Assembly (NCBI GenBank): GCA_023205875.1
Contig: CP060762.1
Location: 310,001 to 374,000 of the forward strand
Reading direction: 5' to 3'
DNA: 64,000 nucleotides
From: Chloropicon primus
Lineage: Eukaryota
Shown here piece by piece: positions 33,396 through 43,319 of the stretch. Position 1 is the stretch's first letter. Every line of letters begins with the position of its first letter. A model generated the notes under the pieces. It was not told the origin of the DNA. It saw only the letters and a list, made by a program, of their open reading frames with translations, and searched no databases. Made by a program: the position numbers and the translations under genes.

Positions 33396-34010
33396 GAACA
33401 CACGAGTATGTTGGTGATGATGTTGGTGATGCCAAGACCAAGACGCTTGTCTCTTCGTGTCACAAAATCCTCACCAGAGCGTCATTTCTTTCGATCGACA
33501 GCTCTTTCGAAAGAGAAGGAGATGGTCCTTCCGCTTATTCCCTCCAACTCTCCACTTTGCTCCCCACAGACCTTCAGTCGCAGCCCTTTCCCTCTCTCTC
33601 TCTCTCAAGGCGCCCACACTGCTCTGCTTGTGCTTGCTTGCAGGAGGCGCCTTGAGAGAGTGAGAGTGAAGGGAAGGCGATCGCATTGCTCGCGCGGTGG
33701 AGAGCGAGGGAGGGAGGGAAGCGGAGTGTGGAACCATCACAAGGAGCGTCTCTTGTTCTTTCAATTGATACCTTGGTTGACTCGTTTGGTGGTCGGAGTC
33801 CTCGCCGTCGTCGACGAGGAAGAGCATTTGGAGGAGAGAGAGTGCGAGGGAGAGGGAGGGAGAGTGGGGTGCTGAAGGGGAGAGGGAGGGAAGGGGAAGA
33901 AGGGAGGTTGATTTTCAGGACGATCGTATCCTTCTCTTTTGAAAGAGCCCGCGCTTGCTTCGTTTGACGCTCGGAGTGCTCGAGAAGTTGCTGCGAAGCA
34001 GGATTGTGAG

Positions 34011-35588
34011 ATGGCGGCTTCAGGGAGGAAGGCGGTGAGTAGGAAGCACCGGGAGGCGAGGGGCCAGGATGGCACCAAGGTTGTGCTGGCGACGACGGGC
34101 GAAGGTCCGAACAAGGTCGTTGATAGGAAGCTGAAAGGTCGAATGAAGCGGGAAGGTGCTCTGGACAGAGAGGCGGCGAAGAATGCTGCAGGTGTGGAGT
34201 TCTGGCTCAACACGCATGACCACGGAGAGCTCGCACCAGAGAACGAGCTGGAGAAGACGTGGCGCCTCAAGCAGGAGGAGGTTGCCTCCCTCGTGGAGGT
34301 GGGCGCTGCATCAAAGCGGTTCGACTTGAAGCTGGAGGACCACGGCCCTTACGCTTGCAACTATTCGAGAGATGGGAGGTGGTTGCTCCTGGGTGGGAAG
34401 AGGGGGCACCTTGCTATGCTGGACTGGCAGAGGCACAAGGTGGTGTGTGAGGTTCAGGTGAAGGAAGCGGTGAGGGACGTTTGCTTCCTTCACAACTCGG
34501 TTTTCTTCGCCGCGGCGCAGAAGAAGCAAGTCTACGTGTACGACAAGAGGGGCATCGAGGTCCACTGCATGAAGGAACACAGGGACGTGGAGAAGCTCAC
34601 TTTCCTTCCGCAGCACTTTCTTCTGGCTTCCGTGGGCGCCCAAGGCATCTTGAGGTACCAGGACACGTCGACCGGAGAGATTGTCGCCATGCACAGGACC
34701 AAGCTGGGCCCGTGCAAGGCCATGTGCCGCAACCCGTTCAACGGGATTGTGTTGTGCGGCCACGCCGGGGGGACGATCACCATGTGGTCGCCGAACATGA
34801 CCGTGCCACTGGTGAAGATGCTGTGCCACAGGGGGCCGGTGAACTCCCTCGCGGTGGATCAGAGCGGGAGGTACTTGGTCACGATTGGGTCGGACAAGCA
34901 GATGAAGGTGTGGGACGTGAGGACGTACAAGCTCCTGCACGCGTACTTCTGCTCGGCTCCCGCAAAGAGCGTAGAAATCAGTCAGAGGGGTCTGGTGGGA
35001 ATCTCTTGGGGATCAAGGGTGCAAGTCTGGAAGGACGCTCTTCATGTCAAGGCAAAGGCGCCGTACATGAACCACCAGCAGGACTCTGGGTACATCCGGC
35101 AAGTCTCCTTCTGCCCGTACGAGGATGTTCTCGGCATCGGGCACGAGAGGGGCTTCAGCTCCATCCTGGTTCCTGGGGCTGGAGAGCCGAACTACGACTC
35201 GTTTGTGGCCAACCCGTACCAAACGAGGAAGGAAAGGAGGGAGCACGAGGTCCACGCCCTGCTGGACAAGCTTCAGCCCGACACCATCGTCCTCAACCCT
35301 CAGGCTGTGGGCAACTTGAAGCTGGACCCGAAGGAGATTGTGGCGCAGAAGAAGCAGGAGCAGAGGGCGGCGATCCAGTCGAGGACAACCAAGCAGAGGG
35401 AGAAGAACGAGGCCAAGAACAAGATGAAGGGGAAGAACAAGCCGACGAAGAGGCACCGCAAGAAGCAGATGAACGTCATACGAGACCAAAAAGAAGCTTT
35501 GCAGGAACTAGTCAAGAGGAAGGACCGGGACAACAGGGAGAGCAAAATTGGCGAGGACGTTCCGAGCTCCTTGAAGCGTTTTTATTGA
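34011..35588 (+). CDS. UTP7: U3 snoRNP WD40 protein Utp7/WDR46 (BING4)
   Basis: GPY..YSRDGRWLLLGGKRGH, FLPQHFLL, FCPYEDVLGIGH..SILVPGAGEPNYD (BING4CT). Confidence 0.93.
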   Translation: MAASGRKAVSRKHREARGQDGTKVVLATTGEGPNKVVDRKLKGRMKREGALDREAAKNAAGVEFWLNTHDHGELAPENELEKTWRLKQEEVASLVEVGAASKRFDLKLEDHGPYACNYSRDGRWLLLGGKRGHLAMLDWQRHKVVCEVQVKEAVRDVCFLHNSVFFAAAQKKQVYVYDKRGIEVHCMKEHRDVEKLTFLPQHFLLASVGAQGILRYQDTSTGEIVAMHRTKLGPCKAMCRNPFNGIVLCGHAGGTITMWSPNMTVPLVKMLCHRGPVNSLAVDQSGRYLVTIGSDKQMKVWDVRTYKLLHAYFCSAPAKSVEISQRGLVGISWGSRVQVWKDALHVKAKAPYMNHQQDSGYIRQVSFCPYEDVLGIGHERGFSSILVPGAGEPNYDSFVANPYQTRKERREHEVHALLDKLQPDTIVLNPQAVGNLKLDPKEIVAQKKQEQRAAIQSRTTKQREKNEAKNKMKGKNKPTKRHRKKQMNVIRDQKEALQELVKRKDRDNRESKIGEDVPSSLKRFY

Positions 35589-35667
35589 TTGATTATTGAT
35601 TGATTGGTTTGTGCAATTCATCGTATATTTTTACATCCATGTTTTACAAAAGTTTTAACCTGAAAAC

Positions 35668-37036
35668 CTATTTTTCCACCACTCCTCCTCCCTGTCCGCC
35701 GGCATGGACGTCGCAAAGCTTCGAGTACTCATCTTGGAGACGCTTGGTGACCTCCCCGCGCTTTCCTCCTCCAATCTCGCGTCCATCCACTTCCACCACA
35801 GGGATGGCACCAGCAAACGTCCCGGTCACAAAGCACTCGGAGGCAGAATAAACCTCGGTCACCGAGAAGTTTCGTTCCTTGGTCTGAATACCGCACCGCT
35901 CCGCGAGGTCGAGCATGTTCTGCCTGGTAATTCCGTGAAGCTGGTACTCTGTTGTCGGCGCAATGAGTTGCCCCCCGCAAACCATGAAAAAGTTGGTGCT
36001 GTTACAAGTCGCAACAAAGCCTTGAGGATCCAACATGAGCGCCTCGTTTACGCGCGCTTGCTCTGCTTGGATACAAGCCGCGATGCACTGGTGTTTCGAC
36101 AACGAGTTGATCATCGGATCCTGCGTGTCGGGCCTTGCTCTTCTGACGAACGAGGTGATCAGCTTAATGCCATTTGTCTTCACATCCTCCGTGACCGCCT
36201 TTCTCTCAGGGATGATCACGATCGTCGGCATGCCCAACGTCGCTTTCGGGGCTTGGTACGGCGTCAACTTTTCACCCCTGGACACGATCAGCCGTATGTG
36301 AACCCCGGATTCCATCCCATTGGCGACGCATGTCTCCTCGACCATTGTTTTGAGCTCATCCTTGGTGAGATCGATGGACATGGCAAGGGCTTTGGCGCCT
36401 TGGTAGAGACGGGCAACGTGCTCGTCCCAGAACAGAAGTTTCGACTTGTGCAATCGAATTCCTTCCCAGACGCCGTCCCCCAGAACGAAGCCCGCGTCCA
36501 AAACCGAAACCTTGGCCAGGCGCCTCGGTACCAATGAAAAATCCAGTGTCACGCCGTTCCTCACGCCGATCAGAATCGAAGCGTTCCGATCATCTTGCTT
36601 GAAGGCATGAGTCCCCCCTCGTACTGCCGCCTCCTGGTCCACGGGCGAGGATGCCTCAAGAACGTCGCGCGCACGGACCGCGCGGGCCTTCAAGAGGCTC
36701 CAGAACGGGTGAACATCCTCCAGCAGGTCAACAATATTTTTGCTCACGGCCTTGGCCATCTTGTGAGATCCAACGCTCTTCGAGAATCCTGTGCTCCTCC
36801 TCGAGTTGCGATACCAAAGATCGGCCCAGCAGCCCTCGTAATCCTTTGGCCCAGCTGTCCAAGCCAGCATTCTTTCATCGAAGGCAACGCCGACGTGACT
36901 CGTCATCGCCTTGAGCATCCGAGCTGGACTCTCGAGCACGTCCTCGGACACAAGCACGAGGCGGTGGAGGGGAGGAGGAGGAGGAGGAGGAGGAGGAGGA
37001 GGAGGAGGAGGAGGAGGATGCGCTCGCTCGCGCGCT
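35668..37036 (-). CDS. 3' part of sulfotransferase-like/class IV PLP aminotransferase (plant BCAT-like type); 5' boundary uncertain
   Basis: VSVLDAGFVLGDGVWEGIRL, EALMLDPQGFVATCNSTNFF, LHGITR, ECFVTGTFAG; begins mid-domain (LVSEDVLESP..MLAWTAGPK). Confidence 0.85.
36966..37018. repeat. (GGA)n microsatellite close to the insertion junction
   Basis: Direct reading. Confidence 0.95.
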
Positions 37037-37060
37037 CTGCTTCACCCCTCGAGGCCTCAA

Positions 37061-39011
37061 GGTTGTCCTGCTAACCCTCATCGCGGAGAGGCGAGAGCGA
37101 CTCTATCCAAAAAGTGAAAATCGGAATCCACCTGGCGCTCAATCATGATGGATGAGAAGGGAGGGGGCATGATGGTTGGGGAGAGGAGTGGTAATGTGTG
37201 GTGGTTTATGCCTACCTACCTACCTATCCACTTCTTCTTCTTTTTACCGGCTTATGGAACGTGTTGTTTCCGCTCTTCATGCAAGGAGGCAGGATCAGGT
37301 GGACAAGAGAACAAAACCAGGAGAGGTGACTCTCGCAGCAACGACTGACTGCTGTCCACAATTAGGGCTCCAGAGGCTTTATCAGCGCGGGGGGCGACCT
37401 CATCTAAACAAGGAGAGAGAGAGGGGGGCGTGTTATATATGTATTGTTTCTATATATAAAAAAGATATGAAATATATGATTGGGAGAGAGACAGAGAGAG
37501 ACATCGGTTGCTCGAGGAGAAGATGAAGAAGACGAGAAAAAAAAAGCATGATGAAAGCTAAGCTGCGGAATGGAAGTACTTGTCGGTCCACGTGTCTACC
37601 TTCTTACGCGCGTGCGGGTTCGGCTGCACGCCAATCTTCGACGCGTGCAGGTGCAGGCACGTCTTCCCAGGCTGCGACTCCGATCGCAGGTACCCATTCG
37701 CCTCCAGCTTTGCCGCGGGGATGATCCAAAAGTATGCTTTGCCTTCCACCCACGCCACCGCCACTAGCTCGTCGAACGCCCCTGCCGGGTAAGGATCTTT
37801 CAGCTCCTTGCCCGCCTCGTCACGCCCGGCGTAGGTGTACAGGTTGCACATAAACCCGGCGGCGCCGTTAGACGCCGCGCGCGCCGTCTTGAACTGCTGG
37901 CGCGTCGTCGCATCCTTCAGCAGGTCGACTTGGGTGTTCTGTCCCTCGGGGAAGGCGTAGCGGTGCTTTGGGAAGCTCGCCTTGAACGCGTCGATGCCGC
38001 GCATCTCGAGCGCGTGGGCCTCGGACGCGAAGTCGTGCCGCGCGGCGTGCTCGGTGACGGTCGTCCACCGACACAGATGGGCCTGGGCCTGGGCCTGGGC
38101 CTGGGCCTGGGCCTGCTCGCTCAGCCATTGCACGAGCGCGGCGAGGTTGAGGCCACGCGCGAGCGCGAGCTCACAGTTCTTGCGGAGGGGGGTGACGCTC
38201 AGGTCCAGCTTGCCGCGCTCGTTCAGCGCGTTGCCGTTGTACACCCACGCGTCGCCGACGTCGCACCGCCAGCACACCACACACATCCCCGAGTAGCCGG
38301 TGACGTTGTGGAAGTACCACGTATTCGGGCTACCCTTCACGGTGCCGCTCGTCGTCTTGAGCTGCACCGGCAGCCACGCGTCCTCCTCGCTCAGGCGGAG
38401 GAGCACGTCGGCTTTCGTGCCGTCGTTTAGCACGAGCGCCGCGCTCCCGGGGATGGTCGCCTCCCATCTGGCGACGAGGGCGAGCGCCACTTCGCGCTCC
38501 GTGGCGGAGCTCCGGCCGTAGATCGCCAGGTCGCGGGCGCGCTTCACCGCGAGCGCGGCTCGGTCGGTCTCCCTCTTCTTGAGTTTGCCCGCGCGGTACG
38601 CCTCGAGGGCGGCGACGGCCTCCGCCACGGTGGCGAAGTATTCCTTGGGGCGACCGATACGCACTCCGTACTTCTTCTTCTTGCGGCGCTTGTCAATGAA
38701 CACCCCCTTGGGCATGGTCGCGCTCCGTCTTCTGTCCCTCGGCCTCGACGCCCGTCCGTTACTTTTAAGTTTTTCGGTCCGCTTCTCCTCCCGCCGATTT
38801 TCAAAATGCCCCCCGCCAAAAGCCATGGCGGGAAAAGGACGGGCGATGGAGGTGTTGGAGGGTTTGAAGGCGAAGGTGTCGGTGGATGCGACCGAGGGGG
38901 AGATCCAGCTGGCGAGGAAGGAGGTGCGGCAGCACGTGGAAGCCCTCGACCGAGACTTGCTGAGGCAGGCCGCGGCTGTCTGTGCGACGACCTCAGGGAG
39001 AGGGGGTTGTC
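37061..39011. mobile_element. Candidate insertion (or large nested intron) splitting the aminotransferase-like gene, bounded by direct repeat GGTTGTC
   Basis: GGTTGTC at 37061-37067 and 39005-39011; contains nuclease-like ORF and a truncated divergent ORF; no terminal inverted repeats or LTRs seen. Confidence 0.45.
37558..38715 (-). CDS. AP2-like DNA-binding domain + tandem PD-(D/E)XK-type nuclease-like protein
   Basis: PKGVF..KYGVRIG..YFATVAEAVAA; DGTKADVLL..WLPVQLKTT; NTQVDLL..RQQFKTA; (QA)n linker; visibly more GC/CG-rich than neighbouring genes. Confidence 0.6.
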   Translation of the reverse strand: MPKGVFIDKRRKKKKYGVRIGRPKEYFATVAEAVAALEAYRAGKLKKRETDRAALAVKRARDLAIYGRSSATEREVALALVARWEATIPGSAALVLNDGTKADVLLRLSEEDAWLPVQLKTTSGTVKGSPNTWYFHNVTGYSGMCVVCWRCDVGDAWVYNGNALNERGKLDLSVTPLRKNCELALARGLNLAALVQWLSEQAQAQAQAQAQAHLCRWTTVTEHAARHDFASEAHALEMRGIDAFKASFPKHRYAFPEGQNTQVDLLKDATTRQQFKTARAASNGAAGFMCNLYTYAGRDEAGKELKDPYPAGAFDELVAVAWVEGKAYFWIIPAAKLEANGYLRSESQPGKTCLHLHASKIGVQPNPHARKKVDTWTDKYFHSAA

Positions 39012-39446
39012 AAGCTTCGAGTACAGCTGCACCAGGGCCGGGTAGCACGACTCCTCGAGAGTGACCGGTGCCCCGCTGTCAAACGAATCGAGGGACTTCT
39101 CCACTCGGTTCCTGATGAGAAAGATGTGAAAGCACCTTCGATCTGTCACCAACTTGCTGTTCTCAAGTCCTTCGAGCTGCTTGCCCACGTGCTTCAGGAA
39201 AATGATTTGCTTGCCGTTCGACATCGACATGATTTTGTCCACGACTTTTGCTCCGTCCGTCTCCATGGACTGAAAGAGCTGCTTCTTGTACGGTCTCTCA
39301 ATTTCAGGATGGCGTACCAACCACTGGGCATACAAGGGCTCATCTATCACGAGAGTATCTTCTCTCTGAGCCCAGCTGTACATCATAGACGTCGAGCACG
39401 ACCTCGGGGCTGCCCACAAGTTCACAATCACTGGCGGACTCTCCAT
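38992..39446 (-). CDS. 5' part (P-loop sulfotransferase-like domain) of the split aminotransferase-like gene
   Basis: LWAAPRSCSTSMMYSWAQR..VIDEPLYA, IFLKH, HIFLIRN; similarity ends at LYSKLDN. Confidence 0.85.
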
Positions 39447-39741
39447 CCTTCCCAACCTTCGCTCCCTTCCCCCTCTCCCCTTCTCCTCCTCCCCTTGGCT
39501 CCCTTCTCCTCCCCTTGAACTCCTCTTCGTTCCCCTTGGCTCCCGCCAAAAAGAAGGAAGGAGGAGGAAGAGGGAGGCGGCGTTATAGAGAGAAGGACGG
39601 GAGGAGGAAGGGGGTTTCCAGGACGACGAAGAACGAAGCTACGTCTCGACATCTTTCCAACGAGTGACCACTCGAAGGGTCTGGCGAAGGGGAACGCATT
39701 GATTCATTGATTGATTCGTCCTCCCAAGCTTGAAGCTTGGG

Positions 39742-40383
39742 ATGTCAGAGGCCGCAGAGCGGAGGGCGGTGCCCTTCGGGGACAGCGAGTACTGGGTCGA
39801 GCGTTACGAGAGGGAGGCGGAGGACGGCTTTGAGTGGTATCCAGGAGCAGAAAGCATCGTCTGCGAGGAGTTGAGCCACCTAACGTCGGAGGAGAGGGGA
39901 TGGAGATGGCTGGAGATAGGGAGCGGAAGCTCTGCCCTCGCGTCCAAGCTCGCGGGAGAGCACTCCTCGGCCACGCTCTGTGTCAGCGATGTGGCCCCGA
40001 ATGTCGTCGCCACCATGAAGGAGAGGCTGCTGCAGGGCGGGGCTCAGAACCTGGAGTTTGCTGTTCTGGACGCCACGAGCATGAAGTGCATTCGTTCCGA
40101 ATCGATGGATCTGGTGTTCGACAAGGGAACATTGGACGCCATCGACTGCCTCGATCACGAGCACGCGGGGACGAGCAGGTGCCTCTCCGAGGTGAGAAGG
40201 GTTCTCAACCCAGGAGGTTCCTATCTCTTGGTCAGCTGCAGGGAGCCAGAGGGGAGGCGGCGAGACTTTGAGCTCGGGGGGCTGAGGCTCGTGAAGACGG
40301 TCGAGATCAAGGGAGTGGATCCCCGCTGCCCTTGCCCCGATGCGTATCTTTTCCTGGTCCAAAAAGCAGAAACTGTACCATAA
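39742..40383 (+). CDS. Class I SAM methyltransferase, METTL13/EEF1AKMT4-like
   Basis: YWVERY..FEWY, LEIGSGSS, DLVFDKGTLDA, RVLNPGG. Confidence 0.85.
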   Translation: MSEAAERRAVPFGDSEYWVERYEREAEDGFEWYPGAESIVCEELSHLTSEERGWRWLEIGSGSSALASKLAGEHSSATLCVSDVAPNVVATMKERLLQGGAQNLEFAVLDATSMKCIRSESMDLVFDKGTLDAIDCLDHEHAGTSRCLSEVRRVLNPGGSYLLVSCREPEGRRRDFELGGLRLVKTVEIKGVDPRCPCPDAYLFLVQKAETVP

Positions 40384-40428
40384 ACAATATTCAAATTCAA
40401 TATTCAATAATATTCTTATTATATATCT

Positions 40429-41328
40429 TCACCCAGCAGAGAAGGGGTTGAAGGGTCTCACCTCGAGCTCAGTCACCATCCTCTGGCTCAGAATTTTCGT
40501 GTACTCCGTCAGAGTGTGGATCTCCCGCGGCCTGTAAAGCTCCGCCGCCTTCACGTCCAACCCATCGGACTGCAGCAAAATGTCCCTCGCGGGAACCAGG
40601 TGCCTGTGCCAGAACTCCTCCAGCGCGGCGTATACGTAGCCCCAGTACTCCCTGTCCCTCTCCACCACGTACACGCAGCTCCCGCCCTCAATCGTCCAGC
40701 AGTAAAAGTACGTGGTCTGCATGTCGAAGATCTCCATCAGGCTCTGCACTTGCGCCATGTAGTACCAAGGCGCCCTGTCCCAAGGCTTCATCTCCTTGGG
40801 ATAGCCGCGGTTGTAGGGGCACTTGATCTCCAGCAGGGCATCCATGTCCGGAATTACCCCGTCAGGCGCAGCCCCGAGCCAGGTCTTCCCCTCCTCCCTG
40901 TGCAGGCGGACCAAGCCTCCGGCCTCCTTGTCCAGAAGCGCGAGCCCGTCCTTGCCGGCGTCCAGGACGTTGTACCCCGTCAGCGCCGAGAAGTCGTCCC
41001 GAGCCCGAGGCTCGTGCTTGGTCCCCCACCTCGTCGCGTCATTCCCTCGGAAGGGCTCCCTCAGGCCCAACTTCTCCTCCCACACTTGCTCCCTTCCCCC
41101 CTTCCACCAACCCAAGGCGTTCGCCAGCTGGGACCCAGTCAGCCTGCTCGCTCGCCTGATGGGGACGACAACCTTGTCCTTGGCGCCCTCCTCCTCGCCG
41201 CCGCCCCCCAAGTCGGAGGACGAGCTCCAACACCTCCCCTCACGCCTCGCACCCCTGCCGTTCGCCTGCACCCTCGCCCGGGTGAACGCCACCAATGACC
41301 TCGCTCTCGAACCGCAGCACCCTCTCAT
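40429..41328 (-). CDS. YqaJ/lambda-exonuclease-like nuclease with organellar-type presequence
   Basis: LTGSQ, ATRWGTKHEPRA, WLGAAPDG, LLEIKCPY, YYMAQVQ; Arg-rich N-terminus. Confidence 0.88.
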   Translation of the reverse strand: MRGCCGSRARSLVAFTRARVQANGRGARREGRCWSSSSDLGGGGEEEGAKDKVVVPIRRASRLTGSQLANALGWWKGGREQVWEEKLGLREPFRGNDATRWGTKHEPRARDDFSALTGYNVLDAGKDGLALLDKEAGGLVRLHREEGKTWLGAAPDGVIPDMDALLEIKCPYNRGYPKEMKPWDRAPWYYMAQVQSLMEIFDMQTTYFYCWTIEGGSCVYVVERDREYWGYVYAALEEFWHRHLVPARDILLQSDGLDVKAAELYRPREIHTLTEYTKILSQRMVTELEVRPFNPFSAG

Positions 41329-41759
41329 GACCGCTGATCTCGAGCCACAATCCTCACCAGTGGTCCAAATCTTCCAAACAAAGTCTCCAACGAAAGAGAA
41401 GGAGCAGATCTTTCCCGTCGCGCCCTCTCTAGTAACCGAGACTCACGTCCCCTCTCTCAAACCATCACCCTCTGTCCCTCCTCCTCCTGCTCTAGACCAA
41501 ACCTCCTCTCTCCTTATCCAGTTTCTGCTTCGCAGCAGTGAGCCAGGGGGCGGAGGAGAGCGAAGAACGAGGTGAGTTTTCCGCGACGTTTGTGGAGTTT
41601 GAGGCGATGGATTGCGACGTGGATAAAACCGCCGTCTTTTGGGCTTTCCAATGGACCCTCTCTCGAAAGATTTGGTGCGGGGAGGAGGAAGCGAGAGGCT
41701 GAGACGTCGTGTGTTTTTCTGTTTTTTGTTTTTTTGGTTTGTTGATTTGATTTGATTTC

Positions 41760-43319
41760 ATGGCGGAAGCGCCAGTGATGAGCGCCAGCATGACTACCTT
41801 GAGATCACGCTCGTCGACGACGGGTCGTTCTGGCCGACGAGGCGTCGTCTCGCATCCCCATCACCAACACCAACACCAGCGCCAGCCGTATCACCGTCAC
41901 CCTCGGTCGGTGTCTGCGATGGCGACGGCGTCGTCGCCCAAGGCAAAGAAGCTCTGGGGCGGGCGGTTCACGGGCGAGACGGATCCCCTGATGCACAAGT
42001 ACAACCAGAGCCTGTCGTACGACCAGAGGATGTGGAGGGAGGACATCGATGGGTCCGTTGTGTACGCCAAGGCCTTGGAGACGCAGGGGATCATCACCCG
42101 GGAGGAGCTGGAGTCCATCATCAGTGGGCTGGAGGCGGTTGGGAAGGAGTGGGAGGGGAGCACGTTCGAGATAGCTCCCAACGACGAGGATATCCACACG
42201 GCGAACGAGAGGAGGCTGGTGGAGCTCATCGGGGACGCGGGGAAGAAGCTTCACACGGGGAGGTCGAGGAACGACCAGGTGGCAACCGACGGGCGGCTCT
42301 GGACCATGAGACGGCTCCAGGTCCTTCGCCAGGACCTCAGGACCTTCCTTCGGATTGCAGGGGAGAGGGCCGAGGAGGAGGTGGACGCAATCATGCCAGG
42401 ATTCACCCACCTTCAGCCTGCGCAGACGGTGAGGTGGAGCCACTGGCTTCTGTCGCACTGCGCCGCTCTCCAGAGGGATGACGAGAGGCTGAGGGACATG
42501 ATCCCGAGGGTGGCGAGGCTCCCTCTGGGATCCGGAGCTCTTGCCGGCAACCCGTTCAACGTCGATAGGCAGGGCATGGCCGAGGAGCTCGGGTTCTTCG
42601 ACGGAGTTTGCCCAAACAGCATGGACGCCGTGTCCGACAGGGATTGGGTGATCGAGGCAATATTCTGCTCGGTGATGATCATGACCCACCTTTCCAGGTG
42701 GGCCGAGGACCTCATCGTGTACTCGACCGCGCAGTTTGGGTACGTGAGCATGGCCGACGCGTACTCGACCGGGTCCTCGCTGATGCCTCAGAAGAAGAAC
42801 CCGGACGCCTTGGAGCTCTTGAGAGGAAAGGCTGGCCGCACCCTTGGGTCCCTTGCTGGCATACTGACGGTGGTGAAGGGGACCCCAACGACGTACAACA
42901 AGGACCTTCAGGAGGACAAGGAGATGCTTTTCGACGTGATGGACACGGTAATGGACTCGATGAAGATCGCCATCGGGGTCGTGAGCACGATGACAATTCA
43001 CCCAGAGAAGATGAAGGAGGGCCTCTCCCCCGACATGCTGGCAACTGACTTGGCGGAGTACCTCGTGAGGAAGGGGATGCCGTTCAGGGATACCCATCAC
43101 GTCGCCGGCGAAGCGGTTGCGCTGGCGGAGAAGAAGGGCTGTGGAATTAGTGACTTGAGCTTGGAGGATCTGCAGTCTCTGAGCGACCTGTTTGCGAGCG
43201 ACGTGAGCGAGGTGTGGAGCTTCGACAGGAGCGCCGAATTGAGGTGCACGGAAGGAGGAACCGCGAAGTCGAGCGTCTTGGAGCAGGTTTCCAAACTCAA
43301 CACATATTTGGACTCTTGA
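41760..43319 (+). CDS. argH: Argininosuccinate lyase (argH/ARG7), probably plastid-targeted
   Basis: KLWGGRF, LHTGRSRNDQVATD, MPGFTHLQPAQ, STGSSLMPQKKNPD signature. Confidence 0.97.
   Translation: MAEAPVMSASMTTLRSRSSTTGRSGRRGVVSHPHHQHQHQRQPYHRHPRSVSAMATASSPKAKKLWGGRFTGETDPLMHKYNQSLSYDQRMWREDIDGSVVYAKALETQGIITREELESIISGLEAVGKEWEGSTFEIAPNDEDIHTANERRLVELIGDAGKKLHTGRSRNDQVATDGRLWTMRRLQVLRQDLRTFLRIAGERAEEEVDAIMPGFTHLQPAQTVRWSHWLLSHCAALQRDDERLRDMIPRVARLPLGSGALAGNPFNVDRQGMAEELGFFDGVCPNSMDAVSDRDWVIEAIFCSVMIMTHLSRWAEDLIVYSTAQFGYVSMADAYSTGSSLMPQKKNPDALELLRGKAGRTLGSLAGILTVVKGTPTTYNKDLQEDKEMLFDVMDTVMDSMKIAIGVVSTMTIHPEKMKEGLSPDMLATDLAEYLVRKGMPFRDTHHVAGEAVALAEKKGCGISDLSLEDLQSLSDLFASDVSEVWSFDRSAELRCTEGGTAKSSVLEQVSKLNTYLDS

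Follow-up and report, generated by a model that had tools for sequence, protein, structure and literature searches.

To our knowledge, known mobile elements of eukaryotes carry or borrow a DNA-joining enzyme. Here we describe an insertion in the tiny marine green alga Chloropicon primus in which we find no such enzyme; it lies in a 64,000-nucleotide stretch of contig CP060762.1 (assembly GCA_023205875.1, positions 310,001 to 374,000 of the forward strand; hereafter the window), where it splits a sulfotransferase-like/class IV aminotransferase gene and carries a multicopy open reading frame (ORF) for a predicted nuclease. Among the described systems closest to it, the homing endonuclease I-Ssp6803I is a tetramer of single domains (PMC3384342). 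MIGE (major interspersed genomic elements) of giant viruses have one ORF with a short non-coding leader, are present in several dispersed copies and have no known transposition enzyme, as described in 10.1101/299784 and PMC4669402, and the way in which they spread is left open in the review 10.1101/299784. Fanzor2 of C. primus is a mobile element with a single nuclease ORF that is described as having terminal inverted repeats and a 5-nt duplication (10.1101/2023.08.09.552727), and in yeast, according to the account in PMC11372161, several donor pieces joined at microhomologies can be inserted at double-strand breaks. Our verdict is that the block in the window is a real insertion, not an intron, and that its core is likely a selfish endonuclease gene.

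The C. primus element resembles each of these systems in part. It shares with I-Ssp6803I and free-standing homing endonuclease genes the fold of its second nuclease domain, the D..Q-x-K motif and a nuclease ORF that apparently spreads itself, but it combines two nuclease domains and an N-terminal domain in one chain, is nuclear rather than bacterial, and has neither intron nor intein. Also unlike homing genes, it has no single cognate site, but occurs at at least seven unrelated loci, and it disrupts a gene of which the empty allele is still present. The one ORF, short leader, dispersed copies and lack of a known transposition enzyme are as in MIGE, and relatives of the ORF are likewise multicopy in a virus contig and fall nearest to a largely viral protein cluster. 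In contrast, MIGE ORFs are described as having a zinc finger, whereas the window protein has no cysteine in its first 140 residues and a loose zinc-finger pattern matched only 2 of 86 long relatives; the C. primus element is also nuclear and drags flanks with it, this comparison being one of descriptions only. MepB of Staphylococcus aureus (PDB 4LQE) matches the C-terminal domain in both sequence and fold, but is a single-domain bacterial protein, and we saw nothing that links it to mobility. Unlike the multi-fragment captures, the insertions described here share one nuclease gene as their recurring core, with flanks inherited from copy to copy, and unlike Fanzor2, the element has neither terminal inverted repeats nor the 5-nt duplication and is unrelated in fold.

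The split of the host gene is real, as the initial annotation had proposed. The gene lies on the minus strand in two halves, both of which match Pfam Sulfotransfer_5 (profile positions 5-104 and 138-226; best E value 1.4e-11), while the second half also matches Aminotran_4 (E value 1.2e-42). An intact allele of 578 amino acids (P0162, QDZ23016.1) is found in another C. primus assembly, in the same cluster as the 416-amino acid product annotated in the window, and is on a chromosome of 781,388 bp, compared to 767,277 bp for the window's protein. Because P0162 equals, letter for letter, window positions 39446-39000 joined to 36957-35671, the block is exactly 38999-36958, or 2042 bp. Thus, the block itself stands, but its edges had been misplaced, with a length of about 1.95 kb and break points near 39005 and 36960; the N-terminal part ends with ..KLDNPL at 39000 and the C-terminal part resumes with VLVSED at 36957. 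The length of the insert is not divisible by three, and the filled allele would yield a 301-amino acid product that is nonsense after residue 149; the second half is annotated alone, with a start at 36918. C. primus is described as mostly diploid (PMC6731263), and loss of function of the filled allele is likely compensated by the empty one.

Both forms of this locus are also found in sequencing runs. We placed contigs of four runs on positions 35000-40500 and contigs of four runs on 38690-39150, and refer to run X1 as DNA-like and to X4 and X5 as RNA-like, although these labels are guesses and no run is recorded as RNA. In all four runs, the loose end before 39000 is window sequence 36928-36957, which is the empty allele that the initial annotation had suggested looking for; in X4, record 12 reads 39490-39000 and then 36955-36707. 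A 53-nt contig of X1 on 38977-39029, with no foreign letters, is the window's left junction (depth 84.1, versus 120.8 for the flank). Since the empty loose end and the left-junction contig both occur in X1, this run carries both forms, as a heterozygote would. The RNA-like X4 and X5 show the empty join only, and may be without the insertion. With an empty allele in another assembly and in four runs, and both forms in one run, the earlier idea of a recent insertion that disrupts this allele is supported.

Movement of the element is evident in a published table of heterozygous indels (PMC6731263, Supplementary Data 8, five parts), in which we compared the first 400 letters of each insertion by eye. 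The table has 73 indels of at least 100 bp, six of which are insertions of more than 1 kb, and two of these six contain the nuclease element. The first, at Chr1:974796 (2531 bp, 4 of 12 reads), has about 95 nt of unplaced sequence, followed by a leader of the type found in run X2 and then by the start of the ORF. The second, at Chr3:74671 (1534 bp, 4 of 18 reads), begins with about 86 nt of other DNA, followed by the same join of the word AATTAG to a flanking piece (piece V) that is present in the window. The join is the same and the outer flank differs, and therefore piece V was inherited between copies; this suggests that flanks may be captured over successive rounds. Three further heterozygous insertions in the table, at Chr3:123680, Chr6:369520 and Chr17:327259, are 2664-2707 bp long; the first two open alike, which points to a second active element.

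The insert is a mosaic. In the sense of the host gene, it consists of the antisense 5′ end of a ZW10 gene, a leader, the 385-amino acid ORF, a trailer, and three pieces, V, W and U, which we deduced from loose ends and contig pieces (Table 1). The source of the first piece is HOP50_03g25220 (P0179) on chromosome 3, and contigs of all four runs continue past 39006 into native ZW10. The pieces are joined at shared bases: the host and ZW10 share 7 bp (expected by chance with a probability of ∼0.0005), ZW10 and the leader share 4 bp (∼0.017), and U meets W, judged by eye, within a 7-mer that the two donors share, with a slip of 2 nt. Downstream of the ORF, record 19 of run X5 (1410 nt) ends on 37366-37536, and a loose end before 37366 is found in X4, X5 and X6; elsewhere, piece U is found immediately next to the 3′ end of a different element copy. 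The 4-bp repeat CCTC at the ends of the insert is known from a single insertion site, the one readable empty site. Apart from simple repeats, there are no further copies of the block within the window. Native ZW10 contigs have ∼1.5-1.75 times the depth of the host gene in X1 and X2, although depth does not equal copy number.

Table 1. Coordinates of the split host gene and of the parts of the insert (window positions, listed in the sense of the host gene)
Feature	Position	Strand	Basis
Host codons 1-149, first part of the sulfotransferase-like domain	39000..39446	-	Identical to P0162 residues 1-149; Pfam
GACAACC before the host break, post hoc candidate recognition word	39005..39011	-	Also at the 3′ end of two other copies (loose ends 37323, 37507; by eye)
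CCTC, left copy of the 4-bp word at both insert ends	39000..39003	-	Comparison with the empty allele
Insertion of 2042 bp, missing from the empty allele	36958..38999	.	Loose end at 39000 is window 36928-36957 in 4 of 4 runs
Captured ZW10 5′ end, 182 bp; shares 7 bp with the host gene (39000-39006) and 4 bp with the leader (38825-38828)	38825..39006	+	100% identity over 53 amino acids to P0179
Element leader, cut at 38828 here	38716..38828	-	X2 record 14; loose ends 38730, 38731, 38828
Leader 11-mer, also upstream of 3 of 4 viral-relative copies	38757..38767	-	Sequence comparison
385-amino acid multicopy ORF, N-terminal domain and two predicted PD-(D/E)xK domains	37558..38715	-	Homologues, fold model
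Element trailer, common to copies with differing downstream flanks	37508..37557	-	Loose ends 37507, 37541
Piece V: putative 3′ end and 3′ untranslated region of a gene facing an element copy (37366-37507, 142 bp), with joining word AATTAG (37360-37365)	37360..37507	+	
Piece W: 39 bp out of another locus	37323..37361	+	Loose ends before 37323 (X1, X5) and behind 37361 (X5)
Piece U: 366 bp, CCT microsatellite at its end	36958..37323	.	X1 record 2 spans 37030-37323 and continues into the element trailer
CCTC, right copy: target duplication or microhomology with piece U	36958..36961	-	Comparison with the empty allele
Host codons 150-578 and stop, rest of the sulfotransferase-like and whole class IV aminotransferase domain	35668..36957	-	Identical to P0162 residues 150-578

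The word GACAACC had been noticed in the initial annotation at both ends of the block and read as something like a target-site duplication. The word is indeed at both places, but its second occurrence is within the insert, about 100 bp from the end, and the word is not a target-site duplication. It occurs 12 times in the window (9.6 expected), and a shared 7-mer arises by chance in ∼27% of random pairs of 30 by 150 positions.

Other copies have, at 38730/38731, some 46 nt of leader that are missing from the window copy and are similar to the codons for the ORF's second catalytic motif. In most copies, the leader (window 38716-38760) holds diverged codons of this motif (compare window 37885-37950), as if the element had once inserted into an older copy of itself. 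The leader 11-mer was matched in 3 of 400 shuffles and equalled by 4 other tiles of 1,112, and may be merely a common promoter word. A similar word is repeated at L008:2006-2103, 3.8 kb upstream of a relative on a 46-kb contig, which hints at a general promoter motif.

A nested gene had been anticipated in the initial annotation, without its identity or the mosaic around it; this gene is the 385-amino acid ORF, which is a member of a multicopy family. Among 7,999 candidates scored, 23 are homologues, and the five best are C. primus proteins. Two C. primus assemblies each contain at least seven annotated loci (from five clusters), on chromosomes 3, 4, 6, 12 and 14, with one identical 377-amino acid protein on both chromosomes 12 and 14. 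Identity between loci is 87.7-96.6% among ten aligned proteins. In the same alignment, 228 of 465 informative column pairs fail the four-gamete test at the amino acid level, with strain versions of one locus included, and therefore the element copies exchange sequence. The ORF also differs from its surroundings in GC content at third codon positions (0.88, versus 0.68-0.73 in the host halves).

The predicted structure of the ORF product (pLDDT 85.7) has a small N-terminal domain of three strands plus a helix, followed by two nuclease-like domains. The second nuclease-like domain (residues ∼224-385) resembles I-Ssp6803I (Z 13.4, root-mean-square deviation 3.3, 132 residues aligned), with a further match to NhoI, and MepB (Z 13.1, root-mean-square deviation 3.4, 126 aligned; profile match with an E value of 9e-10). 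The first (residues 67-211) resembles Holliday-junction resolvases at middling scores (Z 7-8; Hjc, Z 7.8). The protein is thus predicted to have the core fold of the PD-(D/E)xK nuclease superfamily and to cleave DNA. The candidate catalytic residues are D103, Q118 and K120 in the first domain (conserved in 126 of 128, 127 of 129 and 126 of 129 sequences, respectively) and D264, Q274 and K276 in the second (114 of 119, 119 of 119 and 117 of 119). Of the 83 aligned rows that span the two D..Q-x-K motifs, taken from the 150 best of 856 representatives, 74 have both motifs intact. Pfam PDDEXK_5 does not reach its cut-off in the window protein and does so in 1 of 50 relatives (P0295).

The small N-terminal domain is predicted to bind DNA, but the assignment of its fold is weak (match to a chain of the Toxoplasma mitoribosome, Z 5.5); we take it to be 'AP2-like', a label that Pfam does not support, since no AP2 match was found for this domain. 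In relative P0192, an N-terminal Myb domain replaces the usual N-terminus, possibly a fusion that arose through insertion into a host gene. Copy P0147 carries tandem repeats of the 5′ end of the element, and these repeats fit the joint 37910/38677 better than the internal deletion that we had considered. A QA run, encoded by a 6-bp repeat (38078-38119) in the linker between the nuclease domains, differs in length among copies; the published table (PMC6731263) lists heterozygous indels of similar 6-bp units for Chr4:179945 and Chr12:208812.

Outside Chloropicon, relatives of the ORF are found in giant viruses and metagenomes. The full-length fold matches are proteins of Klosneuvirus, Hyperionvirus and an Aureococcus anophagefferens virus (E values 1e-18 to 1e-15), and the Atlas cluster nearest to homologue P0002 is 94% viral (score 0.93). 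A single virus contig of 370,920 bp has four dispersed relatives that are 80-87% identical, three of which share a short upstream leader of ∼90 bp. These viral ORFs, found only via the distant relatives P0322 and P0312, are homologous to the family of the window ORF across both nuclease domains (E values 1e-6 to 3e-4 with an unfiltered profile and 1e-25 to 1e-20 with a wider one). The filtered profile from our alignment (A1) missed these ORFs, and scans with A1 yielded no relatives in viral contigs or genome contigs; a phage collection also contained no match. At three of nine metagenome loci (L005, L006 and L009), identity among the relatives is 89-93% and sets in shortly ahead of the start codon, with unrelated DNA farther upstream. 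In L006, the relative is followed immediately by an ORF for an HNH endonuclease (1613-2032).

Taking together the polymorphism of the site, the mosaic insert, the microhomologies, the dispersal of copies, the other heterozygous insertions and the absence of a joining enzyme, all of which are observed, we consider it somewhat more likely than not that this is a free-standing selfish endonuclease gene which spreads by microhomology-mediated capture at breaks that it likely makes itself. In such a scheme, the nuclease would cut chromosomal DNA with loose specificity, the broken ends would anneal to donor DNA via 4-7 shared bases, and a copy of the gene would be patched into the break together with its flanks and with stray fragments, such as the ZW10 5′ end and pieces V, W and U. 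Flanks would accumulate over successive rounds, and copies that are themselves cut would be repaired from sister copies and become mosaic. We guess that a 4-nt staggered cut, with each overhang annealing to a donor, could yield both the CCTC repeat and the microhomologies.

Several points weigh against this scheme. We infer, rather than observe, that the protein cuts, that the breaks are the work of the element and that its own gene is preferentially captured; the step from a cut at one place to the capture of the gene itself is a supposition, and any target preference would be read from the single readable empty site. The window protein has no Pfam nuclease match, Fanzor2 of C. primus could make the breaks, and yeast is described as capturing multiple fragments at breaks without any such element (PMC11372161). 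With respect to the runs, the junction contig of X1 extends 23 letters to either side of the shared 7 bp, short of the 31-letter rule applied, and X1 may be the source of the window itself; X2, from the same sample, shows the empty form only. The right junction falls within repeat sequence that is masked, none of the contig pieces listed shows the inner joins (38825 and 37323), and X1 coverage is zero at 38770-38817. Finally, the published indel table shows no insertion of ∼2 kb on chromosomes 8-10.

We think it unlikely, but deserving of serious weight, that the gene is a passive passenger, captured often because it is multicopy or extrachromosomal at breaks that come from Fanzor2, replication or linker cuts, with its nuclease irrelevant to its spread. 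The five-piece mosaic is like the complex captures described in yeast, and the nuclease could serve the host, for instance as a junction resolvase or in antiviral defence; the resemblance of the first domain to Holliday-junction resolvases would fit the former. General capture of nucleosome-sized pieces is also indicated by the published indels: 27 of the 73 of at least 100 bp are 160-200 bp long, a size class that includes the 182 bp of the ZW10 piece, and another 7 measure 330-390 bp, a nucleosome-like ladder with which the 366 bp of piece U may be compared. However, this one gene is in two of the six large heterozygous insertions, its copies are open with intact catalytic residues at at least seven unrelated loci, and its relatives are similarly dispersed in the virus contig and the metagenome loci.

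Retrocopying is a more doubtful account, in which a read-through transcript would be reverse transcribed in trans with template switches to other RNAs. Piece V would then be a downstream flank that travels with a copy, as in 3′ transduction, the start of the ZW10 piece coincides with the ATG of the ZW10 frame, a simple repeat closes the insert, and the ORF is present in the RNA-like runs. Against these points, there is no poly(A) tail at the end of either the element or the insert, and no reverse transcriptase within 36958-38999; moreover, the non-coding leader comes along, ZW10 is upstream and antisense, and the microsatellite is part of piece U rather than of the element.

It is very improbable that the gene is carried, as non-autonomous cargo, by a transposon or Helitron that relies on an enzyme from another locus. 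In favour of this account, the insert has a repeated 4-bp word at its ends, Helitrons are prone to capture flanks, and C. primus is described as having non-autonomous Fanzor2 elements with terminal repeats. However, exact inverted matches between the insert ends reach no more than 5 bp (a 9-bp match at the ends of the core is not terminal), the ends vary among copies, no transposase is matched in Pfam, and the two PD-(D/E)xK domains of the ORF model leave no space for another catalytic domain. Helitrons have a 5′ TC, a 3′ CTRR and an A|T target. Here, the initial TC is part of the captured ZW10 sequence, the insert lacks a CTRR terminus and the target is C|G.

We give even less credence to a mis-assembly, in which the assembler would have built the mosaic from repeats. 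It is true that the right and inner junctions are not in the contigs listed and that X2 is without the left junction, but the exact left junction is a contig of its own in X1, the AATTAG/V join is seen again in an insertion from a published long-read table, the joins carry microhomologies, and neither ZW10 nor the host gene is the kind of repeat across which an assembler would connect sequences.

The weakest account, which we set aside, is an intron, whether spliced out at 38991/37037 as the initial annotation had suggested or self-splicing with a homing endonuclease: an in-frame GT..AG pair does exist there and the ORF resembles an intron-borne homing endonuclease, but use of the pair would add 29 residues that include a poly-proline run, and the exact ends of the insert are not splice sites. 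Five placements of these ends give TC..TC, CT..CT, TC..CC, CT..GC and CC..CG, never GT(GC)-AG, and there are 28 in-frame GT/GC-AG pairs close to the ends, 38991/37037 among them, each of which would add 29-56 residues. No joint from 38991 to 37037 is listed in the four runs, of which the RNA-like ones are contigs that show the empty join only and may be without the insertion. Similarly, there is no Rfam intron match up to an E value of 1 within 36800-39200, where the one match, to snaR-A (E value 0.22), is by chance; the flanks around the ORF are pieces of other loci and not a ribozyme.

If the gene is indeed a selfish endonuclease gene spread by capture, it could possibly represent a new class of nuclear element that is shared with giant viruses, a proposal that we make tentatively and hold as a minority view ourselves. 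Its members would be single-chain, two-domain PD-(D/E)xK genes that cut near a short word (GACAACC being a candidate), are patched in by microhomology and shuffle nucleosome-sized pieces of host genes, without transposase, integrase or reverse transcriptase. Spread to unrelated nuclear sites by a cutting enzyme alone plus host repair would be a different route from that of known elements, and C. primus would be a culturable model for the spread of multicopy giant-virus ORFs such as MIGE. The element is also a live source of gene knock-outs and of gene-fragment shuffling in an abundant ocean alga, and the compact single-chain family, with its 856 representatives, offers unexplored biochemistry. 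A literature search, with most subscription papers outside its reach, found no description of the element. Two Chloropicon genome papers do not mention it in the portions available, the word endonuclease being in neither main text, and its locus tags are absent from one supplement file of PMC12301720. The endonucleases described for Polinton-like viruses are of other types (PMC12220804).

The genes around the split host gene look ordinary by eye. On the plus strand, we take 33912-35588 to encode a WD40 ribosome-biogenesis-like protein, 39742-40383 a methyltransferase-like protein and 41751-43319 argininosuccinate lyase, and the ORF at 40429-41442 on the minus strand is presumably a YqaJ-like exonuclease.

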